From Candidatus Latescibacterota bacterium (GTDB taxonomy: Bacteria > Latescibacterota > UBA2968): a stretch of 64,000 nucleotides of DNA. Below, piece by piece: positions 13,867 to 48,671 of this stretch. Location: contig OZ242195.1 of NCBI GenBank assembly GCA_965205975.1, forward strand, positions 4,704,001-4,768,000. The letters are read 5' to 3'. Each line of letters opens with the position of its first letter. Positions within the stretch are counted from its first letter, which is position 1. A program made the translations under genes and the position numbers. Under the pieces are notes generated by a model. It had not been told where the DNA came from. It saw only the letters and a list, made by a program, of their open reading frames with translations, and did no database searches.

Positions 13867-13911
13867 TGGTTCGCTGTGAGGATATGGTGAAAAACAAAGG
13901 TTTTATTGCGT

Positions 13912-14487
13912 ATGTCAAAGACAAAATGGTGCGTAAAACTCGATTATGCGAAAACAATTGCCGATCCATTGCGCCGTCGGCTCTATGTTTGCGCGCTTGT
14001 GGCCGCAGCATTGCCGCAAGCGAAAAAGTTTCCGTATGTCATCGTTGGTGGCAATGCCCTGGAGTTCTATACGCTTGGTGCTTATGCCACTGTGGATGTC
14101 GATCTCGTGAGTGAAAGGCGAACCGAAATTGGCAATTTGTTGGAAAGCTGGGGGTTTGATCAGACGGGCAGGCATTGGCATCACGTGGGGCTGGATATTG
14201 CGATTGAGATTCCCGATGATGTTCTCGCGGGATCTGAAGATAAGGTGACACAGGTCGAGATTGAGGATTTGACTGTCTATATTATCGGTGTGGAAGATCT
14301 CATTATTGATCGGCTGGGTGCTTATGTCCATTGGGATTCAACCGATGATGGAAATTGGGCGCAGGAACTCATGGCGCTATACCAACAAGATATTGATTGG
14401 GCATATCTCAAAACCCGCGCTCAGACAGAAGGCGTGATAGAGGCATTGATTGCGTTTAGAGATCAGGCTGAGGAGGACAGAGGTTGA
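13912..14487 (+). CDS. Nucleotidyltransferase-fold hypothetical protein
   Basis: IVGGNALEFYT..YATVDVDLV (GG..DxD) and EDLIIDRL; start uncertain. Confidence 0.65.
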   Translation: MSKTKWCVKLDYAKTIADPLRRRLYVCALVAAALPQAKKFPYVIVGGNALEFYTLGAYATVDVDLVSERRTEIGNLLESWGFDQTGRHWHHVGLDIAIEIPDDVLAGSEDKVTQVEIEDLTVYIIGVEDLIIDRLGAYVHWDSTDDGNWAQELMALYQQDIDWAYLKTRAQTEGVIEALIAFRDQAEEDRG

Positions 14488-14714
14488 AAACTGTAAATTT
14501 TGATCAACACGTTCGAGAGATACGACCGCGTGCGAGACGCTATCAACTCGAGCAACGCACGCGGCGACGTCAGCGCCTGCCCCGTCGTCGTCCTCGCGAT
14601 GCGGAGGCACGTCGGAGTCTGATTCAGTTGGCGTTGAAACGTCGGGCGCAGTGGTTGGAAGACGGTAGATTAGAAAAGATCGGCCCCAGACACTATCGCT
14701 TGCATCTCGATTAA
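14484..14714 (+). CDS. Small Arg-rich hypothetical protein
   Basis: TTG start overlaps upstream TGA; GAGG RBS. Confidence 0.55.
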   Translation: MKTVNFDQHVREIRPRARRYQLEQRTRRRQRLPRRRPRDAEARRSLIQLALKRRAQWLEDGRLEKIGPRHYRLHLD

Positions 14715-14981: not shown

Positions 14982-16422
14982 GTGGGTCATTTGCTTTGGT
15001 TATAGCCAATGCGTAATTTTAGATATATCTTTATGCATCAGCAAGAGCTTTCACATTTTCGTCTTTATCGTGGAGGTATAATGGCCCGAAGGCAAAATAA
15101 CCCCCTGCGTATTTTAACAGCAGAAGAACGCACCACCCTGTATGCCATCAGCCGTAGTTTAACACAACCGGCTGCCCCTGTTGCGCGTGCCAAAGCCTTA
15201 CTGGCCGTATCCGAAGGGCATTCGTTTAGTGAAGCGGCTCGAAGGGCAGGTCGTCGCAGTGGTGATGCCGTCAGTCAGTTAGTCGCCCGCTTTAATCAAG
15301 AAGGGATAGCAGCCATAGAACCCCGATACGGGGGTGGACGACAAGTGATCTATACAGAAAAAGAACGCCAACGTATTCTTTGTGAGATAAACCGTGTGCC
15401 AGATCGCATACAGGATGGGACAGCAACCTGGTCGCTTTCGACGCTTCAAGCAGCACTGAGAAAAGCCCCTGATGGGTTGCCCAATGTCAGCACCTATACG
15501 ATTTGGACCGTATTGCATGACGCGGGCTGGACCTATCAAAAGGATCGGACATGGTGTATGACTGGTCAAGTGGTACGTAAGCGAAAAACAGGTGTGGTCA
15601 CCGTGACTGATCCGGATGCACAAGCAAAAAAAAAAGCTCATTGAGAAAGCCTACACGCTCGGTGAAAAAATGGGGCTATCCGTCTGGTGTGAGGATGAAG
15701 CCGGTCCCTTTCAAACCATCCCTTACCCCGGACAGCGCTGGCATCCTGAAGGGCGACCCCATCGTTTGCCACACGAGTATGTTCGATCAGGTACAGCCAA
15801 GCTGATGACGCTGTTCCATCCCAAAACAGGTCGCCTGCGTGTGCGGGGAACCACAAGCACAGCCAATCAGGTTTTGCACCCCTGGCTGAAAGAAGAACTC
15901 ACCGCGATCCTGAAAGGCTTACCAAAGGTAAAAAAGACGCATAAAGCAAAGCAGAATCGCGCATTATGGCAGACCTGGCAAGCGGGATTAGAGATGCCTA
16001 TAACCCTGCCTGAAGACCTCCCGCCATTGCGCCTGCTACTTGTGATGGATAACTTGAAAGGACATCACACGACATCGTTGATCTTATGGCTATTCTCTCA
16101 AGGGGTTATGCCGCTTTATACCCCCCTTGGCGGATCTTGGTTAAATATGACAGAGTCCATACAGCGCATCTTGAAACGGCGAGGACTGGACGGACACTAT
16201 CCCCAAACACCTGAGCAAATCATCGACTGGTTGGAAGCCACTGCTGCGGGATGGAATGGTAATCCAACGCCTTTCGAGTGGGGTGGTAAAAGAGCAAAAC
16301 GACGACAGCACAGCAGAGATAGACGCTATGCCATAGGCGGATCAAGGGCCTTCACCAGATCACCTTTGAGACGGTCTAAATCTGCACTCTATCAATGGCA
16401 ACGCGCATACCAAATGACCCAC
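14982..16422 (+). mobile_element. IS630-family insertion sequence (copy A)
   Basis: Terminal inverted repeats GTGGGTCATTTG / CAAATGACCCAC flanked by duplicated TA within CTAG; HTH ORF plus DDE ORF. Confidence 0.92.
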
Positions 16423-16425
16423 TAG
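15081..16425 (+). CDS. IS630 transposase split at an A10 run (ORF A 15081-15644, ORF B to 16425)
   Basis: [29 protein letters not shown] motifs; removing one A at 15626-15635 fuses the frames. Confidence 0.88.
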
Positions 16426-16650
16426 TATTTGGCCAGAAACAATTGGATAATTTGTATTTAGTTAGCTTTTTCACTAATCATAAGACAATTTTAGAGAGAA
16501 CGGGACAGATTAATATGAGGGTCTTTTCAAGATGCTTCATTATCTTTTGATACATTTCATCATTTGTTTGCATCAACTCCTCCTGTGTCAACCACATTGC
16601 CAATTGTAACTTATTTCAGACTGAGAAGATTCCATTTGACATTGAATATA

Positions 16651-16686
16651 AAAAAGTCGTGAGTGCGCAAACCCTCACGACTTTTT
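16651..16686. terminator. Bidirectional intrinsic terminator closing the 16.7-22 kb operon
   Basis: AAAAAGTCGTGAG-loop-CTCACGACTTTTT. Confidence 0.85.
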
Positions 16687-16709
16687 CGTTTTACTGATAA
16701 TTTATGGCC

Positions 16710-17297
16710 TCAGTTTCCAGTTGGACCTATCCAATGCCGACAGACATCATCAAATCCTTTCTTCCCACGTACCCATTTTAGAATAACTTCAATAATCCTA
16801 TCCAACTCATAGTTACCATTAACAACCAAATCGGCCCGTTCAAGCAGAAGCTTCTTGACCTGTTCCTCGGTGGAGTGCTTTTCAATTTGGGCAAGATAAT
16901 CCAGATCATCTGAAGGTTTATTCTTCAATCTTGAAAATCGAATCGCTTCGTCTACCTGGACATAGATAAGCGATAGTTCAGAAGGTAGGACTATTTTCCG
17001 GATTTCATTCAATACCTTTAGATGGCGTATCCCATCAACAACCAGATTCTGGCCTGGTATCCAATCAACCTGATTCAACACGGACCAACAGAACTGGCGG
17101 CAGTCATTCTCTACCAAACTTTCTCCAATATCCTGCAAAATTTCTCTGGAGTTTTCCAGTCCTCGTCTTTGAGCGATACTCCGCACATAGTTTCCAAAAC
17201 TTACCCTCGGAAAACCTAATTGCTGCGCTACACACTCTGATATAGCTGTTTTTCCAGTTCCAATTTTACCTGAAAAACCCAGCACAAATGGTTTCAA
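16710..17297 (-). CDS. P-loop nucleoside monophosphate / dephospho-CoA kinase-like protein
   Basis: GFSGKIGTGKT Walker A, SFGNYVR, REILQDIG and VVDGIR motifs. Confidence 0.8.
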   Translation of the reverse strand: MKPFVLGFSGKIGTGKTAISECVAQQLGFPRVSFGNYVRSIAQRRGLENSREILQDIGESLVENDCRQFCWSVLNQVDWIPGQNLVVDGIRHLKVLNEIRKIVLPSELSLIYVQVDEAIRFSRLKNKPSDDLDYLAQIEKHSTEEQVKKLLLERADLVVNGNYELDRIIEVILKWVRGKKGFDDVCRHWIGPTGN

Positions 17298-17311
17298 GTG
17301 CCCACTTCCCC

Positions 17312-17854
17312 TTACTCGCGGCTAAATGGAATTTCAGATGCCCTTTTTATGACCACCCATCCTCGACGGTCTCGTTTCTTAACATCCAGCGGTTTTGTAG
17401 TACGTACGTGCCGTATTTTCATTAAAGTAGCAAATGAAGCTTTTTGACGGCTTGTCCAGAATTCCGGATCTTCGGCACAAAGAGCTTCAGTAAATTGAGT
17501 CCGTATTTCTCTCCAAGACTCTGAATCCAACAAATAAAACCAGGCAGTACTCACTTGACATATTCCAACTATTGGTCCTCCTGATTTTTTAAGTAAAACT
17601 AAATCGCCTTTATTTACCTGCCCATAGGGAGCACACCTGTTGGATGAAAACCTTGATTCTACAGTCTTCTTACCATCAAGAATAAACTGAAGATAAGGTT
17701 CGATAAAGATTGCAAGATGAACCGCATACGGTGCTGGTTCCTCAGGATTGAATTCCTGAAGATAGCTATTCCAAAAAGTATCCTCCCTGAATTCTGACTG
17801 CAGATAATCAATGATAAATGAACTAAAATTCCTGAGAGAACGGAAATCCTCCAT
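17312..17854 (-). CDS. ASCH (PUA-like) domain protein
   Basis: PYLQFILDGKKTVESR (GxKxxExR signature), GDLVLLK. Confidence 0.85.
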   Translation of the reverse strand: MEDFRSLRNFSSFIIDYLQSEFREDTFWNSYLQEFNPEEPAPYAVHLAIFIEPYLQFILDGKKTVESRFSSNRCAPYGQVNKGDLVLLKKSGGPIVGICQVSTAWFYLLDSESWREIRTQFTEALCAEDPEFWTSRQKASFATLMKIRHVRTTKPLDVKKRDRRGWVVIKRASEIPFSRE

Positions 17855-18424
17855 AGCTTAGATTCTCCCCTTTTTCGATGTCTATGATTCTGTTGATTTG
17901 ATCAGAAGTAACAGACACCAACTTTGCTTCGTCTGGTTTCAACTGACCTTTCAGATTTTTCGAAACGGCTATGTGGGGAGAGGTACCACAGGCCAATGCC
18001 TGAAAGATAAGTTCTAATACGTTAAGACCATCGCACGCGAACACACGGTTTCCTGATGTCCAAACATCAACCTGTTGACGACGGGGATCTCTTCGGCTTA
18101 CGGTAGGATTGACATGCACTCCAAAGGAATGCGTGAAAATACGCTTCATACCAGGGAGGGGCAAGAAGAACTACCGATGCTTGAAAATCGGGAGGTGGAT
18201 CTCTAAGAGCGTCATTCGGCTTGTCGGGCTTGTCGGAACGCACCAGATGATATTGTTCTGACCGTTTCGCCGTTCAACCTCATCTGTCTGACAACGTCCA
18301 GAATGTGTGAAGGGTAAACTCCTGGAAGTGACATCAGTATCTGATCCAGATTTTTTTAATTCCGTGTAACGGCTTTATTTATCTAATCTTCGACCTTTCT
18401 TTCGAATTCGTTGGCAGCAATCAT
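17823..18424 (-). pseudogene. Decayed gene between radical SAM and ASCH genes
   Basis: ATG overlaps the radical SAM stop (ATGA); MIAANEFERKVED then stops; fragment ILMSLPGVYPSHILDVV; 113-aa C-terminal piece at 17823-18164. Confidence 0.6.
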
Positions 18425-19443
18425 CTGTTTAATGACACTCCTTTAAGTGGCACATCGACAATACAGCACTCCCTTTCAGTACCTGTAAAACGACATTCCA
18501 AACTTTGTTGCCAAGCTTCTATGGCTATCCATTGATTCTTCAGAGCTTCTTCAAATCTTTGTGTTAACCTCTTACCCATTGGTGCAAATTCGCGGATCTC
18601 AAGCGGGACTATACGAAGCGGCAAATTTTCATCCAGTGTCTGAAGGCGATCAAGAAAATGGTTCATATCGTCTTCTATTTTGTTTGACGACAATGATGTA
18701 AATGTCGCGTAGCCATACAGATCGATTTTGAGATGTAGAAATCTTTTCATCAATTCAAACTGACGACCAAAAAGTAAGGGGTCTGCTTGGGTGTTAAAAG
18801 AAAATGATTCAGGACTAAAACCTTTGAAACAGCATACTCGGCCATAATTAGAAAATCCCTCTATTCGTTCAAGATCAATGTCGGAGAGATAATTCCAAAA
18901 ATAGTCATTGCTCAGATTATCGTCTGACCAAAGATAAACTTGCTGCTCAATACCACGTTCCTGAATTTCTTGCATCATCCACGGTACCCATTCAGGAACT
19001 AAATCAGGCTGTCCTCCTGTTAGATCAATTACACATGGAGGATTGGACTGATCAAGATAGAGGTCAATCAGTTCGGCAGGTTTGACCAAGGTAGAGAATT
19101 TGTGATTAGCAGATAGCAATTCGAAGGGCACATAGCAATACCAGCATCTCCAATTGCACGAGGCATTTTGAAAAACCTGTGCTCGCATCTTATCTTTTGG
19201 TGCTATATCAAGAGCTCTGCAGACCGGATCAATTGGTAAGGGATTCTCTGGCCACCCCTCGCTCGTTTTACGACCAAAATGCCGTATGCGACCTAGGCCC
19301 TTACAATTAGGAGGCTCACTCAGATCCTGCTCTTGTTCTGTGCCGATGAAATTGGTGATGAGCAGACGACGGTTCTCAAGATCTACTGATTTTTTCCTGA
19401 GGTGTTCAGAAAATTCGTCTGTATTGATCGTCTTGCTGCTCAT
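18421..19443 (-). CDS. Radical SAM protein, uncharacterised clade
   Basis: CNWRCWYC (CxxxCxxC), LTGGQP; no SPASM Cys cluster. Confidence 0.9.
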   Translation of the reverse strand: MSSKTINTDEFSEHLRKKSVDLENRRLLITNFIGTEQEQDLSEPPNCKGLGRIRHFGRKTSEGWPENPLPIDPVCRALDIAPKDKMRAQVFQNASCNWRCWYCYVPFELLSANHKFSTLVKPAELIDLYLDQSNPPCVIDLTGGQPDLVPEWVPWMMQEIQERGIEQQVYLWSDDNLSNDYFWNYLSDIDLERIEGFSNYGRVCCFKGFSPESFSFNTQADPLLFGRQFELMKRFLHLKIDLYGYATFTSLSSNKIEDDMNHFLDRLQTLDENLPLRIVPLEIREFAPMGKRLTQRFEEALKNQWIAIEAWQQSLECRFTGTERECCIVDVPLKGVSLNR

Positions 19444-19461
19444 GTCACAACCACCTCTTTT

Positions 19462-20052
19462 TTAAGACTGCCTTTTCTTCTGTCTGATTGGAGGCACCTT
19501 CTCCCCCTTTACAGTCAAAGTAGGTAATTTCTCATTTATATAGAGCATAACAAGCTCTGTAACGTACTTGATCTCTTTCTCCGTGAGGTCTCTGCCGAGT
19601 GGGATATCGTGCCAATATTCCATGCATTTCCGACAACAACAGGCAGTAGCATGTTGCGCATAATAGATCGAATTACCCTTGAAAGGAGTTTGACGTCCAT
19701 CCCGATTGGGCTCCGCAGGCCCTACGTACTTACGAATCCTGTGTTCTGCAGCTTCTTTGAGACGAATTAGACCCTTTCTACGAGCATGATTTATTGCTCT
19801 AAGGTCAATATCTTTGTGCCAATAGTGGTGACGAAAATATTCTATCTTCAATGAATCAAATGTATGCTTAACATCTGACAAATTGCGTTTATGTACCCGC
19901 TTCCAATCAACTAAATCAGCATCACATTGGCGACATCTTCCTTGCTCATTCTTCTGCTTCATCCGTTGGGTAGCTTTGAAGCAATGAAGGTTGTCTTCGC
20001 AATTTGTGCTGGTGCATGTAATCTTCAACGGTTTCAGTTCTTTTTTAGCCAT
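19462..20052 (-). CDS. DUF4186-family protein with extra Cys-rich N-terminus
   Basis: DGRQTP..YAQHATACCCRKCMEYWH motif; N-terminal CTSTNC..HC..CRQC. Confidence 0.8.
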   Translation of the reverse strand: MAKKELKPLKITCTSTNCEDNLHCFKATQRMKQKNEQGRCRQCDADLVDWKRVHKRNLSDVKHTFDSLKIEYFRHHYWHKDIDLRAINHARRKGLIRLKEAAEHRIRKYVGPAEPNRDGRQTPFKGNSIYYAQHATACCCRKCMEYWHDIPLGRDLTEKEIKYVTELVMLYINEKLPTLTVKGEKVPPIRQKKRQS

Positions 20053-20062
20053 GCGTCAATCC

Positions 20063-21511
20063 TCAATACAGACCATCATCTATTGCACGCATTAGTAGAT
20101 CTCTATCGAATTCGTTGAGGTAACTAAGATCTACGTGTTCGAGTAGTATATCCCGAGCGGTGACCCAGGGTAGAGGATCTGTTTTCTGCAGGTTGCTGGC
20201 TGCTCCCCACCAATTTAACTTCTGTGACGACAGTCGATATGCTATGTAATTGGCAAGAGCATCTGCCTCTACACTTTCCTTTTCAGCCACTTCGGGAACG
20301 ACCCTTTTCAACCATTCTACTTTTCCTTCAGCAGCCTCAACACATTTTTCAGCAAGTTCCTCCGCGCGTCCCGCAAGCATGACATCATCAGCGAAATCAT
20401 TCGCAGCGGCCTCCTCATCAGAGCCTTGCCTTTCTATTGGATCAGTCTCAACCATAGCATATTCTTCGCTGTCGGGATCTTCGCCCGCATGGGCAAGTTC
20501 ATGCAAAAGATCGAATAGCCAACGCGCTAATGAATTCGTCCCTTGTTTCAGTACGATCACATTCCGGTATTCTATCCGCCAACAGGCACCATGGAACGCG
20601 CCTGGATCACGCAACGGCAACACGGGTATACCTAAGCCCCATACATAGCGTAGCACATTTTCAAATGTGACAGATCCATAGGAAGACAGTATCTCCTCTC
20701 TCACTTTGAGACCATTTGTAGGCACTTTTTGTGGTTTCAGATCCTGCGTTGTATCAAGAAGATGCAGACCCAAAATATGGGCAAACATAGTATAGGCACT
20801 TAATCTGGTTCTTTTTGCATATACAGGAGTTTTAAATCTTCCAGCTCTCGCAATAGCAGAATCCATTATTAATGGACGAGAACCAAAGATCAGAGTAGGA
20901 GACCATCCAAATACGCGAGCAATTGCTGTAGCAACCTGCAATGGTACATTTCCGGTTTGGCTCTTTTCATTCTCTTGTTCTATGTATGCGACTAAATCTC
21001 GCGGCAGTAATCGATTGAATATAAAATTCTTCTCAAAACCGGATTTTTCCATCCGACTGAAGATTTTTTCCAGTGAAAATCGTTCTGAAGAAAGAAAAAG
21101 GTCCTCTTGCATTTCAATACCTAGAGCTTCTACGATCTCTTTCAATCGTTCAAGATTGGCAGTCGCATATTCATTTGCTTCGTATCGCTGTATTTGTTGC
21201 TCTTTGAGTCCGAGACGATGGGCAAGTTCCTTCTGAGATAACCCCATAGCAATCCGAGCCTGAATGAGAGCACGAGGAAGATCAGTAAGTGAAAGACGTT
21301 CGAGAACATCGCGCTTACCTTCTACAAGCGCGTCGTATTCCTTTACCTGCATACGGAGTTCCTCATATTGACTTCTCAATGCATCCTGATGAGCTTTCTG
21401 GAGTAGAGGATGAATATTCTTATCTTTATTTTCAGCCAACTCCGCCAAAGCACCCTCAAACTTCCTCATCTGGGCCTTGGTGATCCGATATTGTCTCTCG
21501 TTTTTGATCAT
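20063..21511 (-). CDS. XRE HTH + ImmA/IrrE-family metallopeptidase fusion
   Basis: LSQKELAHRLGLKEQQIQRYE HTH; FDLLHELAH (HExxH) and EEAAANDFA. Confidence 0.9.
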   Translation of the reverse strand: MIKNERQYRITKAQMRKFEGALAELAENKDKNIHPLLQKAHQDALRSQYEELRMQVKEYDALVEGKRDVLERLSLTDLPRALIQARIAMGLSQKELAHRLGLKEQQIQRYEANEYATANLERLKEIVEALGIEMQEDLFLSSERFSLEKIFSRMEKSGFEKNFIFNRLLPRDLVAYIEQENEKSQTGNVPLQVATAIARVFGWSPTLIFGSRPLIMDSAIARAGRFKTPVYAKRTRLSAYTMFAHILGLHLLDTTQDLKPQKVPTNGLKVREEILSSYGSVTFENVLRYVWGLGIPVLPLRDPGAFHGACWRIEYRNVIVLKQGTNSLARWLFDLLHELAHAGEDPDSEEYAMVETDPIERQGSDEEAAANDFADDVMLAGRAEELAEKCVEAAEGKVEWLKRVVPEVAEKESVEADALANYIAYRLSSQKLNWWGAASNLQKTDPLPWVTARDILLEHVDLSYLNEFDRDLLMRAIDDGLY

Positions 21512-21536
21512 ATCTACCACCCACTTAGGTCTATGG
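21288..21536 (-). repeat. ~250-bp inverted repeat, copy 1 (partner 48366-48613)
   Basis: Direct alignment with scattered substitutions and one 1-bp indel. Confidence 0.9.
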
Positions 21537-21957
21537 CTATAATCCCTTTTGGATCGCCCGTAGCTTTATCGGTCTGGAAAAAATCGAGAAAAATCCTGTA
21601 GGGAGGCGTAGTTTCTGCCTCAAGATGAGCAGGAAAGAATTCTCCATGGTATTTGGCTTTTTGTGCCGCCCGTTGATTATCGAAGTTTAACAGAACGGGA
21701 TCAAGTAATGCCAGATCAACCCCGCTGTCATCCCAGCATGCATCAAAATCTCCAGGGATTTCTTTATCTGTAACAAAACTTCCATCTATGTAAACAGTCG
21801 AGCAGCCGGCTGCTTTCAAAGACTTTAATCCTTGCTCCAGGCCATCTAAGAGTCTGCGCCTATGAGCGGTCACACCGAATCTGATTTTGAATTTTTCCCA
21901 AGTTGTCCAATATATGCCGACGGGTAAGCATCCGTTAGAATCGAAAAGTGGTATCAT
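21514..21957 (-). CDS. DUF6932-like protein (predicted nucleotidyltransferase fold)
   Basis: MIPLFDSNGCLPVG, YIDGSFVTDKEIPGDFD (GS..DxD), GDPKGII. Confidence 0.8.
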   Translation of the reverse strand: MIPLFDSNGCLPVGIYWTTWEKFKIRFGVTAHRRRLLDGLEQGLKSLKAAGCSTVYIDGSFVTDKEIPGDFDACWDDSGVDLALLDPVLLNFDNQRAAQKAKYHGEFFPAHLEAETTPPYRIFLDFFQTDKATGDPKGIIAIDLSGW

Positions 21958-22031
21958 AGATTCGCCGTATCTTCTGACAGATTCCGACGGGTAGCAGCTG
22001 CCCGCCAAAGCTAAATCCAATAAAGTATAAA

Positions 22032-22072
22032 TTATCAACACAACAATATAGTTGTGTTGATAAAAATGTCAA
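22032..22072 (-). promoter_or_regulatory. Sigma70-like promoter with overlapping palindromic operator
   Basis: Minus strand TTGACA-16 bp-TATATT; TTATCAACACAAC-N6-GTTGTGTTGATAA at 22032-22063 with the -10 box as spacer. Confidence 0.8.
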
Positions 22073-25674: not shown

Positions 25675-26280
25675 ATGTCTAAAAATTCACCTGAAAATCA
25701 AGTTCTGGAGCTGGCACAGCAAGGTCTCTTGAGAGTTTGCGATCTGACATCCCGGGGCCTTCACCCCGAATATCTGCGCCGACTATATCAGAAGGGACTG
25801 GTACGACGGGAGGGAAGAGGCCTGTACATTGCAGCCGACGCCGAGATTTCGGTACACTATGGGCTGGCGCAAGTAGCAAAGCGCGTTTCCCACGGGGTAA
25901 TTTGTCTGCTGTCAGCCTTGAGCTTCCACGAAATCGGCACACAGCTACCGCATCAGGTCTGGATGGCCATTGACCGCAGAGCAGCCAGGCCAAAGATGCA
26001 ATTTCCTCCTCTGAGAGTGATGCGGTTCTCCGGTGCTGCACTGACTGAAGGAATCGAAACATATCGGATTGAAGGCGTTCCCGTTCAGATTTTTAACCCC
26101 GCCAAAACAGTTGCGGACTGCTTCAAATACCGCAACAAAATCGGCCTGGACATCGCTCTTGAAGCGTTGAAAGAATGCATCCGCGACCGTCGCACCACAA
26201 TGGACGACCTCTGGCACTTCGCAAAGGTCTGTCGCATGACCAATGTGATGCGGCCCTACATGGAAGCTATCGTGGCATGA
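25675..26280 (+). CDS. Type IV toxin-antitoxin AbiEi-family antitoxin
   Basis: RGLY, GVICLLSALSFHEI, PAKTVADCFKYRNKIGLD motifs. Confidence 0.9.
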   Translation: MSKNSPENQVLELAQQGLLRVCDLTSRGLHPEYLRRLYQKGLVRREGRGLYIAADAEISVHYGLAQVAKRVSHGVICLLSALSFHEIGTQLPHQVWMAIDRRAARPKMQFPPLRVMRFSGAALTEGIETYRIEGVPVQIFNPAKTVADCFKYRNKIGLDIALEALKECIRDRRTTMDDLWHFAKVCRMTNVMRPYMEAIVA

Positions 26281-29441: not shown

Positions 29442-29672
29442 ATGCATGAACGTATTATTATTGATCCCAAAGTTTGTCATGGACAAGCCTGTATTAAGGA
29501 CACTCGTATCCCAGTGCATTTAATCCTCCGGATGATGGCCAATGGGGATACCTTTGATGATATCCTGGAAGAATATCCTTCACTGACCAGAGAAGACATT
29601 CATGCCTGTTTCGACTATGGGGCCGCACTCGCTGAAGAACAGGTAACCCCTATAGAAACTTTGTCGAGATAA
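29442..29672 (+). CDS. DUF433-family antitoxin
   Basis: DPKVCHGQACIKDTRIPV..EYPSLTREDI. Confidence 0.9.
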   Translation: MHERIIIDPKVCHGQACIKDTRIPVHLILRMMANGDTFDDILEEYPSLTREDIHACFDYGAALAEEQVTPIETLSR

Positions 29673-29674
29673 GC

Positions 29675-30031
29675 ATGAAGATTGCCGTTGATGAACATAT
29701 TCCCTTGATGACTGTGCAAGCTCTGCGAGAGATGGGGCACGAGGTACGCGATATTCGCGGTACTCCTGATGAGGGCATGCAGGATGACGAACTGTGGAGT
29801 ATGGTACAGAGACAGAGATGTTTGTTTATCACAGCAGATAGAGGCTTTACACAGTATCGTACAGAGAGACATCATGGCGTGTTGATCGTCCGGCTGCGTC
29901 AGCCGAATCGACATAGAATTCACCACCGGGTCATGCAGGGAGTAACTCAATTTGCCGAAACCGATTGGCCCGGTTTACTGGTGGTCATGAGAGATACAGT
30001 CCAGAGCAGTTGGCGGGCAGAAGCGAAATAG
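29675..30031 (+). CDS. DUF5615 PIN-like toxin
   Basis: MKIAVDEHIP, GHEV, DDELW, ITADRGF; follows DUF433 gene. Confidence 0.85.
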   Translation: MKIAVDEHIPLMTVQALREMGHEVRDIRGTPDEGMQDDELWSMVQRQRCLFITADRGFTQYRTERHHGVLIVRLRQPNRHRIHHRVMQGVTQFAETDWPGLLVVMRDTVQSSWRAEAK

Positions 30032-47776: not shown

Positions 47777-48403
47777 ATGACCCGAAATATTCTTGTGCAT
47801 TCGGATAAGGATGTGCCAAAGCGCATGCTCACGGCCTGGAGTCTTGGATGTCCGGATCAGTTGATTGCCACTGCACAGGTTATTGATGATGAGCTCTTTG
47901 TCGTGGCCTGTGACCATACCCTGTTTAGAGTTGGCTTTGAAGAAATGCCCGCACTCAAGCGTATTCCAGAAGAACAGCGTTCTTCATTTACCATCTCCAG
48001 TGAAGGTAGTTATATTCACTGGCCTGAGGCTGATGTACATATCGACCTGGATGCAGTTCGCTACCTGAAAGATGATGAGTGGCGTGAAAAAAAGGATCGG
48101 GAAAGATTGATGTCTGATATTCGGTTCGGAGAGGCGGTTGCCGCATTTCGAAAACAGTGTGGGCTTAAGCAAGCCGATATTCAGGGCCTTTCGGAACGTC
48201 AGGTGCGTAGAATCGAAAAGGGAGAACGGACAAAGGTGGATACGCTGGGGATTCTGGCAAGAAGTCACGGATTGTCCCTGAAAGTATATCTGGATAAAAT
48301 TGCCGAGATACTTTCTGAAGATGGTGAGGTTATCTCCAGAGTCTCGACCTCGATTCCGCAAGACACCATAGACCTAAGTGGGGGCAGATATGATCAAAAA
48401 TGA
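47777..48403 (+). CDS. DUF2442-like + XRE HTH protein, probably 5'-truncated
   Basis: GSYIHWPEADVHIDL; GLKQADIQGLSERQVRRIEKGE; ORF-track N-terminus is antisense PhyH sequence. Confidence 0.65.
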   Translation: MTRNILVHSDKDVPKRMLTAWSLGCPDQLIATAQVIDDELFVVACDHTLFRVGFEEMPALKRIPEEQRSSFTISSEGSYIHWPEADVHIDLDAVRYLKDDEWREKKDRERLMSDIRFGEAVAAFRKQCGLKQADIQGLSERQVRRIEKGERTKVDTLGILARSHGLSLKVYLDKIAEILSEDGEVISRVSTSIPQDTIDLSGGRYDQK

Positions 48404-48613
48404 GAGACAATATCGGATCACTAAGGCCCAGATGAGAAAGTTTGAGGGCGCTTTGGCGGAGTTGGCTCAAACTAAAGATAAAAATATTCACCCTCTACTT
48501 CAGAAAGCTCATCAGGATGCATTGAGAAGTCAATGTGAGGAACTCCGTATGCAGTTGGAGGAATACGACGCGCTTGTAGAAGGTAAGCGCGATGTTCTCT
48601 AACGTCTTTCACT
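48366..48613 (+). repeat. ~250-bp inverted repeat, copy 2
   Basis: Aligns with the reverse complement of 21288-21536. Confidence 0.9.
48390..48602 (+). pseudogene. Truncated copy of the 5' end of the HTH-ImmA gene
   Basis: MIKNERQYRITKAQ..KRDVL then TAA where the intact copy has GAA. Confidence 0.85.
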
Positions 48614-48671
48614 ATCTGTCTGTTGTCACTGAATTTGTGTGTGCTGCCAATCACCGAAACCATCTCCGAAT

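Follow-up and report, generated by a model that had tools for sequence, protein, structure and literature searches.

Prokaryotic viperins act against phage through antiviral ddh-nucleotides, with a radical S-adenosylmethionine (SAM) enzyme encoded in one operon with a nucleoside-monophosphate (NMP)-kinase-like protein (NF038283; PADLOC pVip, VakA). In CapH/CapP, a helix-turn-helix (HTH) repressor and a peptidase are encoded by separate genes upstream of a defence operon. Anti-phage RosmerTA systems combine HTH-ImmA antitoxins with variable toxins (excerpt of PMC10440598), and operons of predicted base-modification conflict systems repeatedly carry an accessory pair in which an AAA_17-type P-loop kinase gene follows an ASCH gene (excerpt of PMC7641849, citing Iyer et al. 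2013). Here we compare with these systems an operon of seven genes, A to G, from a Candidatus Latescibacterota bacterium; it lies in a 64,000-nucleotide stretch (the window; positions 4,704,001 to 4,768,000 of contig OZ242195.1, assembly GCA_965205975.1). We tentatively read it, with confidence somewhat short of even, as a defence operon that makes a modified pyrimidine nucleotide inducibly, under the control of a toxin-antitoxin-like head. This reading builds on a gene order conserved over 15 phylum-level groups, together with patchiness in its own phylum, carriage on plasmids and an insertion in Tolypothrix; on an operator tied to the A-type head, the exchange of DUF4160 and of the B N-terminus, and the occurrence of A and B alone; and on recurring nucleotide-pool enzymes, a gene G product nearest to dNMP and NMP kinases, and defence genes adjoining some loci.

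The operon fell outside every named system tested, PADLOC systems included. An earlier annotation made from the letters of the window alone (the sequence-only reading) had recognised no named system with this gene set, and the PADLOC and NCBIfam searches and the literature agree: the operon was not described in the literature searched, which did not extend to Iyer et al. 2013 or to paper supplements, nor in searches on DUF4186 and DUF6932, nor in the excerpts of PMC10853773, PMC4738411 and PMC12707154. Its novelty lies in architecture, namely an operator over the -10 box, a swappable DUF6932/DUF4160 head, kinase-regulator and ASCH-DUF4186 fusions, and recurrent pool-enzyme neighbours.

A sigma-70 promoter and a terminator enclose six intact open reading frames (ORFs) and one remnant, all on the minus strand, with intact neighbours spaced -7 to 18 nt apart. 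This bears out the earlier description of tightly packed, co-oriented genes including one decayed member, and the CxxxCxxC, HExxH, GxKxxExR and Walker A motifs that it had called intact are all present and conserved in relatives. The features are as follows.

22045..22072, minus strand: sigma-70-type promoter; -35 TTGACA, 16 nt, -10 TATATT; 11 of 12 consensus positions.
22032..22063, no strand assigned: palindromic operator; 13-bp arms, core ACACAA-N6..9-TTGTGT, with the -10 box central.
21514..21957, minus strand: gene A, DUF6932, 147 aa; start ATG at 21957 (GTG at 22041); Pfam DUF6932 at 1e-37.
20063..21520, minus strand: gene B, 482-485 aa; N-terminal partner domain, Xre HTH and M78/ImmA-type zinc peptidase.
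19462..20052, minus strand: gene C, 196 aa; Cys/His-rich N-terminal extension and DUF4186 core (CCRxC); Pfam DUF4186 at 3.5e-32.
18421..19443, minus strand: gene D, 340 aa, radical SAM protein of an unnamed family; Pfam Radical_SAM weak, below cut-off.
17850..18424, minus strand: remnant of gene E, 575 of ~1300 nt; two internal deletions, frameshifts and stops.
17312..17854, minus strand: gene F, 180 aa, GKER-type ASCH protein; Pfam ASCH barely above cut-off; family-specific KRDRRGW tail.
16710..17297, minus strand: gene G, 195 aa, P-loop NMP-kinase-like protein; Pfam AAA_18/AAA_17; Walker A conserved.
16650..16687, minus strand: intrinsic terminator hairpin; A/T runs on both sides.

Of 4279 candidates, 3155 proved to be relatives of D at 90% clustering; with clustering at 50% and E ≤ 1e-30 there were 164. 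We analysed 85 loci chosen by D, which comprise the best 80 of 165 genome stretches with a D relative plus five plasmids. The sequence-only reading had staked its proposal on a gene order shared with other taxa, and the collapsed order was exactly A-B-C-D-E-F-G in 49 of the 85. With short contigs included, B and C were each present in 84, F and G in 76, E in 75 and A in 66. The 78 D proteins placed in a tree represent 15 phylum-level groups, one of which is an archaeal bin; this quick tree, whose deep forks are open, shows clustering by phylum and not individual transfers. The best 80 of 457 metagenome loci mostly carry the same operon.

D was also found on seven plasmid records, six of them predicted to be conjugative, and all five that were inspected have the seven genes in order. 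Within its own phylum, D occurred in 2 of 151 genomes; within the genus, the whole locus was present in 1 of 20 genomes and the flanking DNA in 13 of 15. The nearest titled locus, L046, comes from a Candidatus Latescibacterota bin and is 96.5% identical in DNA without gaps; L046 and the single same-genus hit are probably not independent. An 18,401-base insertion holding these genes separates Tolypothrix PCC 7712 from PCC 7601 (excerpt of PMC9679502). Given its patchiness in the phylum, its presence on plasmids and this strain-specific insertion, the operon is an accessory, mobile unit. Searches of a phage collection and of viral contigs with two patterns gave no match to the operon, and C, E and F matched no PHROG.

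Upstream of A, the pattern ACACAA-N6..9-TTGTGT (one mismatch tolerated) was found in 61 of the 62 loci from which it was derived, compared with 3 of 1240 shuffles. It was recovered in 32 of 33 held-out loci, in none of 32 that lack A, and in 1 of 161 regions preceding D. Because it is absent without A and near-universal with A, the operator is tied to the A-type head. The palindrome is probably the binding site of the gene B product, and the operon appears to be auto-regulated through this conserved operator, with B as the likely repressor. A -35/-10 layout like that of the window precedes A in most relatives, and the start codon often stands immediately 3' of the operator, suggesting leaderless messages. 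The promoter scan as a whole gave 8 sites versus 10.9 in shuffles, which is no excess; contigs from the RNA runs span most of the operon, which is no demonstration of transcription.

In an alignment of relatives, G59, S60 and D72 of gene A are invariant and D70 is near-invariant. Gene A thus contains GS-x9-DxD, and we take GS-x9..13-DxD to be the signature of Pol-beta-type nucleotidyltransferases; A is a putative nucleotidyltransferase toxin. It also matches PADLOC PDC-M63A at 5e-10. Gene B matches Pfam HTH_3 and, weakly, Peptidase_M78, its HExxH is invariant in 36 relatives, and it is a putative antitoxin-repressor. A DUF4160-like gene substitutes for A in 21 loci, in all 21 directly before B and in none together with A, and B then carries a different N-terminal domain; the domain switches with the upstream gene. 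This exchange indicates that DUF6932 belongs to a toxin-antitoxin-like head and not to the chemistry, and A (or its DUF4160 substitute) together with B would make up an exchangeable, self-repressing head, with both small families as putative toxins. In two same-genus genomes, A and B occur without C to G. DUF2442, the label that we had presumed for the alternative N-terminus of B, gave no match in a B-sized frame in five genomes and was dropped.

The head most resembles RosmerTA in that an HTH and zinc-peptidase protein stands directly behind an exchangeable small gene, the pair is also found alone (in the two relatives above), and B matches PADLOC RmrA at 5.6e-9, mostly across the HTH. B differs from RosmerTA antitoxins by an additional N-terminal domain specific to its partner and exceeds the RmrA profiles by ~100 aa, and the pair here heads a five-gene enzyme module. 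Membership of that two-gene system was rejected on the near-constant company of C, F and G in the loci chosen by D. The sequence-only reading had compared the HTH and peptidase with CapH/CapP; B is instead a single chain like a RosmerTA antitoxin, and the capH profile matches its HTH only, at 0.0014. A truncated copy of the B N-terminus, 91% identical, lies at 48378-48617 of the window, and similar fragments occur in many same-genus genomes.

The cluster motif of D, CNWRCWYC, is present in 63 of 63 relatives, with additional near-invariant Cys47 and Cys205, and no NCBIfam model came near its cut-off with D. In the predicted structure (predicted local distance difference test, pLDDT, 94.5), the nearest folds are PFL-activating enzyme (PFL-AE; Z 17.1), QueE (13.9) and spore photoproduct lyase (12.5), with viperin further off at 11.2. 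The operon is like prokaryotic viperin systems in joining a radical SAM enzyme of this fold, with CxxxCxxC, to an NMP-kinase-like protein, and in its proposed use of an antiviral nucleotide; it is unlike them in its five further conserved genes and in a fold closer to PFL-AE. D scored 19.3 bits against NF038283 (cut-off 180), with the match limited to aa 94-166 around the cluster motif, and matched PADLOC pVip at 1e-5 over 74 aa, in keeping with the earlier view that this radical SAM protein does not look like viperin. The glycyl-radical activating enzymes (PFL-AE, NrdG) were also rejected, although theirs is the nearest fold: TIGR02495 gave 16.4 bits versus a cut-off of 131, and none of the seven genes encodes a glycyl radical enzyme partner. 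In the C extension, C13, C18, H23, C40 and C43 are invariant. The predicted D-C complex scored 0.00, which weighs neither way; a C-D fusion in locus L016 was set aside, as E is broken there too and the join is possibly a lesion, and P0130 proved not to be a C-D fusion.

The decayed gene is central to our reading as a SAM-dependent transferase. Three pieces of the remnant match positions 3-71, 157-197 and 326-412 of a 418-position profile in three frames with stops, showing that the decayed gene noticed in the sequence-only reading is a real remnant; its DPPWY motif is degraded, with the Asp lost. Intact E is ~430 aa long and carries DPPWY in 50 of 51 members. Its predicted structure (pLDDT 91) superposes on the branched-chain polyamine synthase BpsA in all three domains, including a winged helix common to both (Z 21.2, root-mean-square deviation 3.6, 278 residues; next 16.1), and Foldseek ranks 1-9 are BpsA-type. 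BpsA identity was nevertheless rejected. The GDDD of true BpsA aligns with GTPS of E (a weak alignment, E 0.017), the family form being GxPS/T with G124 and P126 in at least 90% of 51 members, and GDDD positions decarboxylated SAM (dcSAM) in BpsA and is indispensable for catalysis (excerpt of PMC12979288); BpsA-type aminopropyl transfer is therefore unlikely. E resembles the PF10237 amino-methyltransferases (EEF1AKMT1) in having a DPPY-type motif after strand 4 and in its profile match (38 of 51 members at E ≤ 0.1, best 9e-9; the first member is below the cut-off), and 0 of 51 members match PF01861. With GDDD missing, transfer of a methyl or other SAM-derived group onto an amine becomes more likely, and the models suggest that intact E is a SAM-dependent amino-transferase of this kind.

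Among 98 loci with at least 3.2 kb on each side of D, 91 have E, and in 7 of these it is broken; for B, C, F and G combined the figure is 6 of 371 (p 0.006, with loci that are not independent). E is cleanly missing from 4 otherwise typical loci. E therefore looks optional or costly and not protective. The window holds a degenerate member of the family in which only an E-less version can run. Four sequencing runs included two with the E form of the window and one with another break; one run contig has 691 extra bases at the E deletion, consistent with an intact E in a close relative. Between the window and L046, dN/dS was 0.25 for the intact genes and 0.13 for the E remnant (4 and 9 changes), and because the remnant ratio is similarly low, it is uninformative on selection after E loss. 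At 17855-18164 of the window, the 3' piece of E keeps an open 113-aa frame that differs from L046 at 3 of 310 bases, all silent, versus 2.5-5% divergence in the intact genes; possible explanations are retention of the C-terminal domain and a deletion that is recent or recombined. Elsewhere, G000:C1:3618211-3618789 (L113) holds a true BpsA-type gene with GDDD, of a family described mainly from thermophiles.

G61, K63, E66 and R68 are conserved in the gene F family. The sequence-only reading had named E. coli YqfB, which hydrolyses N4-acetylcytidine (ac4C), as an example of ASCH activity, but F is not of the YqfB type: YqfB-type ac4C amidohydrolases bear a GK..[T/S].R octapeptide, and F carries the Glu of the GKER type in at least 90% of 37 relatives. 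GKER-type ASCH proteins deacetylate tRNA cytidine through a Lys/Glu dyad (both in an excerpt of bioRxiv 2026.02.27.708502), and F has this dyad. Gene G gave a full-length match to the archaeal AdkA-like SSO1041 and matched a phage dNMP kinase family over aa 1-171 at 3e-7. Genes F and G together recall the ASCH and AAA_17 pair of the (PIN)-GNAT-EVE operons, as excerpted; the core differs, being made up here of a radical SAM protein, DUF4186 and a BpsA-fold transferase, and membership of (PIN)-GNAT-EVE-ASCH-AAA_17 was rejected on finding no GNAT, EVE or PIN domain in the seven genes. For A, C, E and F, searching solved structures by sequence yielded no useful match.

Neighbour families were confirmed by Pfam for representatives, and the remainder were assigned by clustering. 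A dCTP-deaminase-like gene is present in 7 genome loci and is inserted directly before D in 3 metagenome loci, a MazG-like gene adjoins 6 loci, and dGTPase genes accompany 7 cyanobacterial loci (downstream of the operon in L001, L007, L009, L010, L014, L016 and L019); deoxynucleoside kinases (dNK) and TylF methyltransferases also occur. Eight distant D relatives lack the other six genes; six of these eight lie near ThyX or ThyA-like genes (~4 independent cases), and the two others are on contigs <3.4 kb. Such company of pool enzymes and thymidylate synthases points to pyrimidine deoxynucleotides as the substrate class. The earlier suggestion of a modified-nucleotide link gains from these accessory genes, which tie the operon to nucleotide metabolism.

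Two of these six distant D relatives have settings of note. At L154:1-5970, an operon of a methyltransferase, a D relative, a deoxynucleoside kinase, a thymidylate-synthase-like protein, Ham1 and NDK is a candidate for a complete modified-dNTP pathway. At L116:157-6859, a distant D relative heads a tight operon with ThyX, HD-CE, an Orc/Cdc6-like protein and a C5 cytosine methylase, a candidate for another system. D relatives at L163:6986-14743, L191, L192 and L161 are paired with a beta-propeller protein and lie near ThyX, a FolC-like ligase, a glycosyltransferase and an ECF S component.

For the defence context, we took the two nearest genes per side at 76 genome loci, which gave 213 proteins between 150 and 1300 aa (shorter proteins and plasmid loci were excluded), and compared them at a PADLOC cut-off of 1e-15 with a single-genome control, 124 genes sampled at 15 equally spaced regions of the genome that holds the window. 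Matches were found for 52 of 213 flanking proteins versus 18 of 124 controls (p 0.037), eight of the control matches coming from one CRISPR locus. The flanking matches include prokaryotic Argonaute (pAgo) with a Cas4-like nuclease, dGTPase, type I restriction-modification (RM), Pycsar, a CBASS cyclase, AbiE and a Druantia-type helicase, and some are transposon-derived or generic. An anti-phage role is plausible. In cyanobacteria, the operon is divergent from the pAgo and Cas4-like nuclease pair, which lies upstream (L007-L010, L018). Two control regions, L095 and L100 (G000:C1:3480001-3492000; 5330001-5342000), contain a type III-B CRISPR locus that encodes CARF proteins, and dndC/dndD genes.

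In the mechanism that we propose, A would be paired with B through the N-terminal domain of B, and the HTH of B, seated on the palindrome over the -10 box, would hold the operon shut until the zinc peptidase relieves repression upon a stress or infection cue. D, aided by metal-binding C, would carry out a radical reaction on a pyrimidine (deoxy)nucleotide of the soluble pool, to which E could add a methyl or other SAM-derived group on an amine as optional tailoring. G would phosphorylate the unusual monophosphate and might also serve as the sensor domain of B, F would read or strip the modification for host protection, and the product would poison invader replication, with A as a suicide back-up. 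The order of these steps is likewise conjectural.

Several observations weigh against synthesis for defence. Nucleotidyltransferase family and structure searches with A gave no match. The fold of D is nearest to that of a protein-acting enzyme (PFL-AE), and a substrate cannot be read from how Z varies between radical SAM folds. DPPY-type motifs occur also in protein, RNA and polyamine enzymes and by themselves do not tell DNA, RNA, protein and small-molecule substrates apart (excerpt of PMC11514484), and the winged helix and arginine-rich C-terminal motif of E (SRRDxRR..WTSGNR) could indicate nucleic-acid substrates. Of the flanking matches, 23 came from 39 proteins of 13 cyanobacterial loci, and the remaining 29 of 174 are at the control level (p 0.63); the enrichment in defence islands that the sequence-only reading had proposed to look for thus held in cyanobacteria and failed elsewhere. 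Finally, 11 of 80 metagenome loci encode a B protein with G joined to its C-terminus (9 of them full-length) and lack a standalone G behind F, and these fusions suit sensing as much as synthesis.

The best-surviving alternative, which we consider unlikely, is sensor-triggered abortive infection: C to G would recognise or convert a modified pyrimidine nucleotide of the phage, or convert a host nucleotide to a signal, and the kinase-like domain would switch B and free the toxin A. Beyond the B-G fusions, it accords with an exchangeable, toxin-like head, with the dispensability of E and with the proposal of P-loop kinases as phage-nucleotide sensors for DndF (excerpt of PMC10853773). It has to account for a radical SAM enzyme and a transferase, which are costly for a sensor, and for some loci (L084, L140, L153, L116, L154) whose analysed DNA shows D-E-F-G, or D beside thymidylate synthases, and no head. 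Further fusions join ASCH to DUF4186 (at least five loci and two database proteins), F to G, B to C, and DUF4186 to a DUF5131 protein bearing a three-cysteine motif; DUF5131 may be radical-SAM-like.

A broader proposal combines both functions, and we regard it as possible though on the unlikely side. A non-viperin radical SAM enzyme, a DUF4186 helper and a BpsA-fold tailor would make an unknown pyrimidine deoxynucleotide, a poison and/or messenger, which would be read by a kinase-like domain fusable to the antitoxin-repressor-peptidase and would release an exchangeable toxin, as an independently evolved immunity class. If so, synthesis, signalling and toxin-antitoxin control would be united in one auto-regulated operon.

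It is quite improbable, in our estimate, that the operon has no part in defence and is a damage-inducible nucleotide repair, house-cleaning or small-molecule pathway on mobile DNA, kept by its toxin-antitoxin head. The lack of defence-gene enrichment in flanks outside cyanobacteria, the MazG, Ham1 and HAD neighbours, which are house-cleaning enzymes, the presence of spore photoproduct lyase and QueE among the top folds of D, and a polyamine synthase as the best fold of E all fit such a pathway; against it, conflict systems typically show patchiness, carriage on plasmids, one gene that is often broken and defence genes next door, as here, and E is without the catalytic GDDD of BpsA. Still more doubtful is self-marking of a polymer as in Dpd/Dnd, with D and E modifying a base in DNA or RNA and F as reader: the winged helix, amino-methylase motif and arginine-rich motif of E, the E-F fusions (L070, L118, L123) and the prediction of ASCH domains as modified-base readers linked to N6A-methylases (excerpt of PMC4738411) speak for it, but the core has no nuclease, E is lost while other genes remain, the opposite of what a protective mark predicts, the winged helix is also found in BpsA, and a monophosphate kinase with pool enzymes indicates free nucleotides.

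At the core of the operon are three families without a known reaction: the unnamed radical SAM protein, the GDDD-less BpsA-fold transferase and DUF4186. The system is common and strongly conserved, with thousands of enzyme sequences, cultured hosts and plasmids, and it is directly testable through intact copies (Tolypothrix PCC 7712, NZ_CP063789.1; Nostoc NIES-3756; Rhizobium WYJ-E13 and Roseovarius THAF8 plasmids), a strain pair with and without it, E-less variants and a defined operator. Were inducible nucleotide synthesis correct, it would reveal new radical chemistry on nucleotides and perhaps a new antiviral compound; DUF4186 and DUF6932 would gain their first function, and toxin-antitoxin heads would be connected to nucleotide-based immunity.

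The terminator called by the sequence-only reading is upheld by folding of the 16650-16687 hairpin (-19.6 kcal/mol, z -4.5, equalled by 0 of 200 shuffles); a consensus terminator scan did not list it, the loop being too long. The genes had also been called AT-richer, and this stands with respect to the flanks (G+C content 0.42-0.45 versus ~0.50 on both sides) but is not unique within the window, where 37-39 kb and 42-47 kb are equally AT-rich. Adjoining the 3' end of the operon and outside the system is the following feature.

15009..16425, plus strand: IS630-like transposase, two ORFs.

Beyond the IS630 element, at 13906-14714 of the window, lie a DUF6036 nucleotidyltransferase gene and a small downstream ORF. 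ORFs at 25675-26280 and 29442-30031 resemble what we take to be an AbiEi-type antitoxin and a DUF433/PIN-like pair.

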